Source: Balanoglossus misakiensis
Lineage: Eukaryota > Animalia > Hemichordata
Assembly (NCBI GenBank): GCA_040954595.2
Contig: CM082580.2
Span: 13,938,242-14,002,241 of the forward strand
Reading direction: 5' to 3'
Length of the DNA: 64,000 bases
In this document: positions 4,753 through 7,046 of the stretch, one piece after another
How the letters are laid out: each line of letters starts with the position of its first letter
How positions within the stretch are numbered: position 1 is the first letter of the stretch
Position numbers and translations under genes: made by a program
Notes under the pieces: model-generated
Told to the model about the DNA's origin: nothing
Seen by the model: only the letters and a program-made list of their open reading frames with translations
Database searches by the model: none

Positions 4753-7046
4753 CTAGTTTCCATGGAGACGAAGTTTACGATAGATCGAGAGCAGTGGTAT
4801 GAGTTTTTCGTACGTCAACGCGACATCATTTGGGTCCATTGTCCTCTTCTTCTCTGCAAACAACGAGTTTATTCTATTTTTATCCTGAAAAAAAACACAC
4901 AAAGCAACATGTTTATCTGGGTATGTTTAGTAAGAATAATAAAATGGCCAACCCTCAGATACAGACACATGTGCGTGCCTACACAATAAGGCACATGTAT
5001 GACGCATGAACACATTCGCTCACGGGGCACTATGTTGTCCAAAAACAGGTTCCAAAAGTGACACAAATACTGGAGGCATTCAATAGCTAAATGTTTCTGT
5101 GTAAATTCACATGGGTATGGCATGAAGTACATTGCTAATAGGATGATATTTCTTCACCGCCAGGAGAATGATTATTTCAGTCAAATTTCCATAAGGGCGA
5201 CTCACGACCTCTGTTTGTGATGTTGATATCACATTTATCTCTGATTGCCATTCCCTTGTGAAAGCCAGTCTTCTCTCAATCATGCAGATTCTTGCTCTCC
5301 GCCATTACATGATGCGCAGTTCCTCAGGCGCTGAACATAGGACACACTTTCACTTGGCCATTTGTGAAGATATTTCTCCCAGAGACAGAAAACTTCCTCC
5401 TTAATTTCCTTATAATGGATTTTGTTAATTCCGATAGCCATTAATGCCCCATTTGTCTTAAGGTCGGACAAGAATTCCTCGAATTTCAGAGTAAGGGGAT
5501 CCCTTTCTGAGATTGTTATAATCGGTTTAAGTGGCACAGTTCGCAGGCACAGACAGCGCGGAGGGTGACGGTTGAGGCACATTTGTGAAATGAGGTCGTT
5601 GGGGAAACGTGTGTGTGTGTGTGTGGGCGTGTGTGTGTGTGTATGTGAATTTCTTTATGGAGATGAACGCCACCTTGATAGATTAAAATATTTTAGGTTT
5701 TTCTTTAACCATCCAGAATCGTGCTGAGTGCAAATATGCGAAAACTAATCTTTTCCTATGGATAGAGCCATTAAAGCAACGGTTAAAAGGCCTTTTTCTT
5801 ATTCTGTGGACTTGTCCACTGCTTTGATCGCCAGTGTAGTCTGTTTCAAACGCTGTGAGGACGGTTGCACATTTGTGCTGAAATGACGCCGCTTGATATG
5901 TTCGTAGGTCGATACGCTCAGTGCGACTAATGGTTTCGACGCTCCTAGGTGATTGAACAGAAGCGCTTGGAGGACTATATGAAAACGGGCTTTTGCGGAC
6001 GCTAAATTGTGGCAAGGCAGAAATGACAAAAACAATTTGTCCAAAGTACATCAACGGCAGAGACATCATTAAAATTTCACGTGAACAATCTCTTTCTACA
6101 AATCAGGCACTTAAACCAGGGCTGTTCATGTTGACCTTTTTGCGACCCGTAGGTTTATATACACTCCAGCAAAATCAACATTGTCAGTGAAAATATCTGT
6201 CCATCGAAATTCCCATGTAATAATATTTACTTTTAAAATCACACATTTATGCACTCCATAGACCGCCATATTTGGTTGAAATCTGACCAGCTGTTCTTGA
6301 GATATCAGAGAGAGAGAGAGAGAGAGAGAGAGAGAGAGAGAGAGAGAGAGAGAGAGAGAGAGAGAGAGAGAGAGAGAGAGAGAGAGAGAGAGAGACAGAC
6401 AGACAGACAGACACTGTAGCGTGGGGACACTTTGATGTTGTTTGTACGTGATCATTCACCAATTTTTCAGAATGCTGTTCAAGTAAACACTAGCCCACTC
6501 AACACATTCTGAGGAAAAGTCAGTTTATAAATGATCCGCGGCAAATGAAGTGGGAGAAATTTCTATGGCATATCTCCTTTTACACAGAGCATTCTGTATA
6601 GCCATCAAAACTGACAATGTGTTTTGCACATCATATATATAAGACATGTAAAGAAAATGCACTGAATCCCTGGTTGCCTACATTCATAACAACTGCAGAA
6701 AATAATTCAGGCAATATGTACTGCCAATGATCCTTCAGGGTATAAAGTTCACAGTATGCCCGTGGATTAAGTGCCTTGGGTATACTCTGTGGCGTTTGAG
6801 AAGTGTGATTTAATATAACATTATGTCCTTCATTAAGGTGGTGCATACTGCTTGAAGTTGTTGATAATATAGAATACTCACACCAAATTCATATGAGGAT
6901 TGCACATCGAGATCATTGTCATCACTTTCTCCAGGGAAGTCTTCAAGAAAGACGTCCTTCCTCGTGTGAATCGTCCTGGCACGGGTCGCTCTCGGTATCC
7001 ATAGTGACAACAGGCTCAAATACAATAGGAAGAAAGTCTTTTTCAT
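4753..7046 (-). CDS. Secreted prepropeptide A1 (98 aa), unknown peptide family; coding exons 7046-6882 and 4884-4753
   Basis: MKKTFFLLYLSLLSLWIPRATRARTIHTRKDVFLEDFPGESDDNDLDVQSSYEFG|DKNRINSLFAEKKR-TMDPNDVALTYEKLIPLLSIYRKLRLHGN*. Signal-like N-terminus, acidic pro-region, KKR site; canonical gtgagt donor and ttttttttcag acceptor in phase 0. Exon sizes (165 and 132 nt) equal those of paralog A2. Confidence 0.85.
5609..5646. repeat. (GT)n microsatellite
   Basis: Interrupted gtgtgt run visible in the sequence. Confidence 0.85.
6307..6412. repeat. (GA)n microsatellite grading into (GACA)n
   Basis: Direct read; explains the SLSLSL ORFs at 6126-6462. Confidence 0.97.

Follow-up and report, generated by a model that had tools for sequence, protein, structure and literature searches.

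Several described precursors offer points of comparison for the genes analysed here. Among the orphan precursors of ambulacrarians (starfish, brittle stars, sea cucumbers and Saccoglossus) the recurring design is a small protein, about 100 residues long, that comprises signal peptide, acidic spacer and conserved dibasic site and in which conservation is concentrated on the released peptide, the latter being short and amidated or present in repeated copies. Propeptides usually have a basic tail behind their acidic spacer, and amidation, pyroglutamate and repeated copies are common, but not universal, marks of neuropeptides. For the ligands of class B GPCR the first two residues are critical. 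CRH/DH44 peptides are formed by about 40 residues and are C-terminally amidated, with a short Pro-x-Asp-Val stretch near the N-terminus of insect DH44, and PDF/PDH is an amidated peptide of about 18 residues. The amphibian dermaseptin-type precursors consist of signal peptide, acidic propiece, KR and peptide, and defence peptides more often diversify in their mature part. No other bilaterally symmetric outgroup is closer to chordates than the hemichordates, and annotation by homology usually misses peptide signals confined to one lineage. The Saccoglossus list, in the available part of PMC10508912, is made of bilaterian-conserved families found by homology (vasotocin, orexin, GnRH, CRH, TRH and calcitonin among the neuropeptides), and none of those in that part resembles the peptides described below.

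The window, that is, the whole 64,000-nt stretch of Balanoglossus misakiensis DNA that was analysed, contains two genes, here called A1 and A2, that share the listed features of the ambulacrarian orphan precursors, the signal peptide being a putative one, but differ from them in encoding a single non-amidated peptide of 28-29 residues; no sequence relative was found. With a probability of roughly 55%, A1 and A2 are paralogous genes for 98-residue secreted prepropeptides, which are cut at KR to yield a helical, non-amidated C-terminal peptide serving as an extracellular signal. According to this reading, two paralogous minus-strand genes of two coding exons each, with splicing predicted from the sequence alone, would give products directed to secretion by their hydrophobic N-terminus (as judged by eye and by hydropathy). 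A prohormone convertase would then cleave at KR, freeing the predicted-helical, non-amidated peptide of 28-29 residues, which probably acts outside the cell in a neuropeptide- or hormone-like fashion. The A peptides may thus form a candidate new (orphan) peptide family, possibly restricted to one lineage, rather than a recognised hormone. Should expression and processing be confirmed, the two unannotated precursor genes, which are under selection, would bring a further family of orphan ligands, and the duplicated two-gene precursor unit would be a clean case for work on receptor deorphanisation; taken alone, the finding has no bearing on a long-standing open question.

Gene models and precursor layout

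The positions assigned to the two peptides by a first-pass annotation proved right, and both peptides lie on the minus strand (table 1); the plus-strand translation of the A1 interval is unrelated to the A1 peptide. The features that had been read from the residues also hold: KR precedes both peptides, Cys is absent, an RK pair is found internally, and the C-termini (..HGN-stop and ..KGQ-stop) carry GN or GQ with no Gly-dibasic amidation signal, the stop codon following each peptide directly. Pyroglutamate and repeated peptide copies are likewise absent from the A precursors.

Table 1. Features of the window, with coordinates and strand (a slash marks an exon boundary).
Feature	Position	Strand	Description
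Alpha-amylase ORF	499..1701	+	
A1 terminal coding exon	4756..4884	-	129 nt, 43 codons; phase-0 acceptor ttttttttcag/GAT; pro-region end DKNRINSLFAEK, then KR (4843-4848), then peptide; stop TAG 4753-4755
A1 predicted mature peptide	4756..4842	-	29 aa; translation TMDPNDVALTYEKLIPLLSIYRKLRLHGN; predicted helix
A1 intron	4885..6881	-	1997 nt, GT..AG; (GA)n and (CA)n microsatellites inside
A1 first coding exon	6882..7046	-	55 codons; ATG 7046-7044; signal-peptide-like N-terminus MKKTFFLLYLSLLSLW...; acidic spacer
B1	18654..20880	-	exon 1 20725-20880, for signal peptide, acidic spacer and KR; exon 2 18657-18803, for two further KR sites and, at the C-terminus, a peptide with a C-x5-C loop; stop 18654-18656
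Weak B-exon-2-like remnant	28532-28717	-	from BLASTP of window ORFs and profile search
A2 terminal coding exon	35589..35717	-	129 nt, 43 codons; phase-0 acceptor tctcatcag/GGC; KR 35673-35678; stop TGA 35586-35588
A2 predicted mature peptide	35589..35672	-	28 aa; translation NLDPKDVARTYEVMIPLMLRILKDRKGQ
A2 intron	35718..36884	-	1167 nt, GT..AG
A2 first coding exon	36885..37049	-	55 codons; ATG 37049-37047; signal-peptide-like N-terminus MRTSPLLLCLALLSS...; spacer
B2 (B1 paralogue)	42888..43879	-	exon 1 43721-43879; exon 2 42891-43058; stop 42888-42890
Gene with zf-CW, PWWP and ARID domains	49-51.6 kb	-	Pfam
FTCD exons	62-64 kb	-	

The first coding exons were sought on the minus strand among ORFs that open with an ATG and a signal-like stretch and run up to a phase-0 GT donor. 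One such exon was recovered 1.2-2.0 kb upstream of each terminal exon, bearing out the earlier proposal that a small precursor ends with the peptide, placed after KR. Both exons reach a GTGAGT after 55 codons (phase-0 donors GGT/GTGAGT in A1 and GAA/GTGAGT in A2), and both start with Met and one or two basic residues (MKK in A1, MR in A2), followed by a hydrophobic core and a c-region of small residues. The assignment as signal peptides was made by eye and from hydropathy, the best 9-residue Kyte-Doolittle means being 2.5 and 2.92. A splice acceptor precedes the ATG by 14 nt in A1 (..ttttgtag/), where an in-frame TAG is also found two codons upstream, and by 13 nt in A2. Alignment of the two exons gives 15 identical residues of 54 (28%) with a score of 46, against 18.7 +/- 3.5 for shuffled sequences, none of 2000 reaching the observed value, and the codon positions follow a trend like that of the terminal exons described below (p = 0.045). 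Equal length, same donor, an acceptor before the ATG, mutual similarity and the codon-position trend together lead us to take the exons starting at 7046 and 37049 as the real first exons. The other candidates listed between 4885 and 18650 (at 16793, 14946, 14780, 14765 and 6455) have no partner at the A2 locus, and those found between 35718 and 42890 outside the microsatellite, namely the nested ATGs at 42689, 42662 and 42656, have none at the A1 locus.

The window also contains two genes of a second type, B1 and B2, upstream of A1 and A2, respectively, and the A exons could in principle be alternative distal terminal exons of these genes, sharing the B signal-peptide exon in a calcitonin/CGRP-like manner. 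The phases are compatible, phase 0 being found both at the end of the B1 and B2 first exons and at the start of the A exons; a stricter signal-peptide scan returned no A-specific first exon in 4900-18650, and no third or fourth B-type first exon is present in the window. However, the looser scan did find an A-specific first exon close to each A terminal exon, the two being alike in length and donor and significantly similar to each other, and the B1 stop is followed 6 nt later by AATAAA. The sharing of a B signal exon, which had been the main reading, was dropped once the A-specific first exons were found, the hydrophobicity cut-off of the earlier scan having been too strict, and it is now regarded as highly improbable.

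With their own first exons, the predicted A1 and A2 products both consist of 98 residues (55 + 43 codons), arranged as signal-like N-terminus, acidic spacer, KR and C-terminal peptide. The net charge is approximately -4 (A1) and -3 (A2) for the pro-region, and +1 and +2, respectively, for the peptide.

As a side observation, poly(A) signals occur downstream of the two genes at nearly equal offsets (843/966 for A1 and 841/964 for A2). No meaning is attached to these values, since the regions downstream of A1 and A2 do not align, and they are taken as a coincidence.

Similarity between A1 and A2 and its distribution

When the six-frame ORFs of the window (2883 of at least 15 aa) were compared by BLASTP, A1 and A2 paired with E = 1.5e-5. 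The Smith-Waterman score of the pair is 73, whereas shuffled sequences yield 20.1 +/- 4.0 and none of 2000 reaches 73, so that the similarity is not due to chance. A profile HMM of the pair retrieves only the two A exons from the window, the next best match having E = 0.77. At the DNA level the two loci exhibit no similarity at blastn E <= 1e-5, and the resemblance has thus been kept at the protein level only.

The alignment confirmed the identity of 11 of the first 18 peptide residues given in the first-pass annotation, as well as its remark that the pro-regions are more divergent: outside this core 23 of 78 residues of the precursor are identical (Fisher p = 0.015). Conservation centres on peptide residues 3-17 (DPxDVAxTYExxIPL), starting two residues after KR; the KR pair directly before the conserved core is itself invariant, with 5/14 identities in the divergent stretch around it and 3/10 in the basic tail of the peptide.

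At the codon level, the 42 aligned codons of the terminal exon have 27, 28 and 15 identities at positions 1, 2 and 3, respectively (Fisher p = 0.0022). For peptide residues 1-18 the corresponding fractions are 0.72, 0.83 and 0.28, and different codons lie behind 7 of the 11 identical residues. The dN/dS values for the terminal exon are approximately 0.53/1.86, with the synonymous sites saturated. The A coding sequence is under purifying selection, as positions 1 and 2 of the codons are conserved and position 3 is not, and the pattern is that of an old duplication that has been retained. The conservation of the peptide, as read from these sequences, is that between the two paralogues alone.

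The opposite possibility, that the A ORF ends are non-functional and their similarity is a decaying remnant or accidental, would agree with the lack of an orthologue in the searches of protein libraries and metagenome contigs reported below. It is very improbable when set against the ORFs and splice sites, which are intact, with equal exon lengths in both copies, against third codon positions that have been randomised while the residues were kept, and against the outcome of the shuffling of the A1-A2 pair.

Predicted structure and comparison with hormone and defence peptides

The 43-residue terminal exon of A1 was modelled with AlphaFold2 from a two-sequence alignment, with a mean pLDDT of 78.4. 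The model contains helices at residues 2-15 and 18-42, the second of which corresponds to peptide residues 4-28, and they are separated by a break at the two residues that follow KR (the Met-Asp of the TMD with which the peptide starts). The helicity that had been expected for the peptide is thereby reproduced, AlphaFold2 predicting one helix across the A1 peptide. In the model the peptide helix starts with Pro4 and is directly preceded by Asp3, an arrangement that looks like a helix N-cap.

The helix predicted before KR (residues 2-15) also allows for the exon to be a helix-break-helix unit, and for the A products to be small secreted proteins that escape cleavage at KR, in which case the C-terminal helix would remain part of a mature protein of about 75 residues, with a role in binding or in its structure. 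The presence of a single conserved dibasic site and the lack of an amidation signal would be in line with such an arrangement. We consider it unlikely, given that KR is conserved within divergent surroundings, that conservation begins two residues beyond it, and that this succession of acidic spacer and basic tail is customary in propeptides.

On the basis of size and likely helicity the first-pass annotation had proposed a ligand of a class B (secretin/PDF/CRH-like) GPCR, or else an amphipathic defence peptide; neither assignment was upheld. A receptor class cannot be told from size and helicity alone. In a Pfam hmmscan at E <= 10, a setting at which the HMMER filters drop most matches above approximately 0.1, neither the A peptides nor the exons matched CRF, Pigment_DH, Hormone_2, Parathyroid or Calc_CGRP_IAPP, that is, the models for the CRF, PDF, glucagon/secretin, PTH and calcitonin families. 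Among the PDB sequences the A profile matched six chains at E <= 10, none of them a hormone.

The A peptides are like CRH/DH44 in being single, Cys-free helical peptides (by prediction, in the case of A) with which the precursor ends, behind a dibasic site, and the Pro-x-Asp-Val stretch of DH44 bears a likeness to the A motif that is a lead only. They differ in length (28-29 residues instead of about 40) and in their C-terminus, as the GN or GQ end has no basic residues after Gly and amidation is not signalled. With respect to PDF/PDH, both the profile match and the amidated peptide of about 18 residues are lacking. Due to the absence of a profile match and of an amidation signal, and to the mismatch in length, the A peptides are not filed under any class B family. 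That they are nonetheless divergent true members of a known family of class B GPCR ligands (CRH/DH44, PDF, PTH or secretin/glucagon) is very unlikely: what speaks for it are general features (28-29 residues, no Cys, a predicted helix, a C-terminal location after KR), and the hormone families of Pfam and the hormone chains of the PDB are unmatched, the amidation signal is missing, and the first two residues of the peptide are not conserved between A1 and A2.

With regard to host defence, the precursors resemble those of linear helical antimicrobial peptides in layout (putative signal peptide, acidic spacer, KR) and in ending with a Cys-free, predicted-helical peptide, which as a linear cationic antimicrobial peptide would be freed from an acidic propiece. 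The best 18-residue stretch of A2 is moderately amphipathic, with a hydrophobic moment of 0.57 that is reached by 109 of 2000 shuffles. The A1 value is 0.25, equalled or exceeded by 1627 of 2000 shuffles, so A1 is no more amphipathic than its shuffled versions, and the net charges of only +1 and +2 are low. Thus, the high positive charge and the strongly amphipathic helix by which antimicrobial peptides are recognised are found in neither A1 nor A2. Furthermore, what the two copies have conserved is the acidic motif at the N-terminus rather than the basic tail, and this motif belongs to the mature peptide, whereas diversification of that region would be more common for defence peptides. An antimicrobial function of the A peptides is accordingly held to be unlikely, and a signalling role is preferred as the probable one.

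Searches for relatives and neighbouring genes

The profile HMM built from the two A exons was compared with 1.84 billion representative proteins, and two matches were obtained at E <= 0.001. They are proteins of 915 and 769 aa with 5-8 tandem repeats containing a YDPNDVARTT-like motif, and were rejected as homologues, the match being read as the coincidence of a short motif. No match at E <= 10 was found among the longer proteins of a word-indexed protein library for either the A alignment or the alignment of B exon 2. From metagenome contigs the A alignment gave 206 pattern matches, none of which was confirmed, and the best score for A in the ESM Atlas (0.82) is below the level of a lead. Substrings of the A peptides were not matched in the texts of papers. 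The blanks in the protein libraries are weak evidence, because the proteins of this species seem to be missing there and the nearest annotated hemichordates are distant: the alpha-amylase encoded at the start of the window has its closest amylases in Ptychodera flava (75%), Saccoglossus kowalevskii (72%) and Glandiceps talaboti (71%), so that even the best of them is only 75% identical. This ranking agrees with a hemichordate genome, and hence with the ambulacrarian host that had been supposed.

In Pfam at E <= 10, A1 matched no family and A2 matched IPMS_D2 and DSX_dimer, both below threshold. The IPMS_D2 match (18-19.3 bits, E 0.0015-0.0036, with a cutoff of 27) has a counterpart in the PDB search, where isopropylmalate synthase (1sr9) aligns with the A profile at E = 0.069 through a shared LWxV....DPxDVxRTYE..I. 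An isopropylmalate synthase identity was rejected and the match attributed to chance, taking into account that it is below cutoff, that A1 is unmatched and that other ORFs give equally weak signals: among 129 window ORFs scanned against Pfam at E <= 0.01, four below-cutoff matches (E 0.0016-0.009) were obtained, the IPMS_D2 one and three that fall on unrelated families, and the scan revealed no further enzyme domain. Helix caps recur in unrelated proteins, and an N-cap-type motif may explain the matches to both isopropylmalate synthase and the repeat proteins, each of which would then be coincidental.

The B genes are clearly paralogous to each other, with scores of 87 to 118 that none of 2000 shuffles reached. 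Their layout is that of the A genes, on whose strand they lie: an intron in the 5'UTR that reaches to 13-27 nt from the ATG, 52-55 codons in the first coding exon, which closes in phase 0, and a terminal exon in which KR precedes a C-terminal peptide of some 27-31 residues. The total lengths of the four products are also similar (98, 98, 101 and 109 aa). B2 also presents KR-P-DPTDV where the A precursors have KR-xx-DPxDV. The B peptides differ from the A peptides by a C-terminal Cys loop, and the B precursors by additional KR sites. Homology is not detected in direct comparisons: hhalign gives a probability of 0.2%, and 157 to 1824 shuffles out of 2000 score at least as well as the A exons do against the B exons. 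An exception is the pair of A1 and B1 first exons (score 46, 0/2000 shuffles), which was rejected as a sign of homology, since the score rests on the signal peptide and on acidic composition. A relationship between A and B is thus suggested by their common architecture and by the B2 KR-P-DPTDV, and it is not statistically supported.

A bolder combination of these elements would make A and B one unrecognised hemichordate family of non-amidated helical hormones, derived from one ancestral gene with two coding exons and amplified as B-A-B-A. The A peptide would then be a divergent class B GPCR ligand (e.g. for a CRH/DH44-type receptor) that activates its receptor through the N-terminal DPxDVAxTYE helix cap. 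This proposal is speculative, and we give it a small chance of being correct.

Between 2 and 47 kb the window contains no other ORF recognisable by Pfam. On the minus strand the order of the genes is FTCD exons, the zf-CW/PWWP/ARID gene, B2, A2, the B-exon-2-like remnant, B1 and A1, and the alternation B2-A2-B1-A1 fits the duplication of a two-gene unit.

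The B1/B2 gene pair and a B-like remnant

Each of the two precursor-like genes that alternate with the A genes, namely B1 and B2, encodes a signal peptide, an acidic spacer, three Lys-Arg (KR) sites and a C-terminal peptide closed by a terminal Cys loop, which reads CATIGGC in B1 versus CATFEC in B2. Searches of Pfam and of the protein library returned no relatives. The final codons of B2 overlap a good splice donor (G|GTAAGC) immediately 5' of the stop codon. A weak remnant on the same strand, which reads in part RLPMQKTTDAHKK, resembles the 5' half of B2 exon 2 and has lost the KR sites; it may represent a third, decayed B copy.

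Features of the window flanking or accompanying the A genes (approximate limits marked c.)
Feature	Position	Strand	Remark
Alpha-amylase gene exons	127-459 and 499-1701	+	
Inverted repeat, 59 nt	2708-2766 and 3059-3117		arms 95% identical, spacing approx. 290 nt
(CA)n microsatellite	c. 5530-5690		within A1 intron
(GA)n microsatellite	c. 6130-6490		within A1 intron
B1, precursor-like gene	18654-20880	-	paralogue of B2
B2-exon-2-like remnant (weak)	28532-28717	-	HMM E-value 0.053
(TATG/CATA)n tetranucleotide-type microsatellite	c. 40450-41300		approx. 0.9 kb, between B2 and A2
B2, precursor-like gene	42888-43879	-	paralogue of B1
Exons, gene with zf-CW, PWWP and ARID domains	49358-51618	-	
Exons, formimidoyltransferase-cyclodeaminase (FTCD) gene	62202-63883	-	

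Short-motif look-alikes of the A peptides

The library proteins P0004 (915 aa) and P0005 (769 aa) carry 5-8 copies of a tandem repeat of approximately 28 residues containing YDPNDVARTT(I/L)KE, which has eight residues in common with the core of the predicted C-terminal A peptide. They were rejected as relatives of the A peptides, the short motif being judged a coincidence. In A2, LWEVNKRNLDPKDVARTYEVMI (35640-35690, minus strand) is similar to a segment conserved in isopropylmalate synthase (residues 404-426 of PDB 1sr9; E = 0.069). This likeness is probably due to chance, because it falls under the Pfam threshold and A1 gives no isopropylmalate synthase match.

Flanking genes and repeats

The alpha-amylase is nearest to hemichordate amylases, with its best match in Ptychodera flava (75%), which assigns the window to an enteropneust-like genome. 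Relative to the cluster of peptide genes, the zf-CW/PWWP/ARID gene and the FTCD gene are located upstream, on the same strand. Among the repeats, the (TATG/CATA)n microsatellite generates long artefactual ORFs in several frames, and the arms of the inverted repeat may be the termini of a small transposable element.
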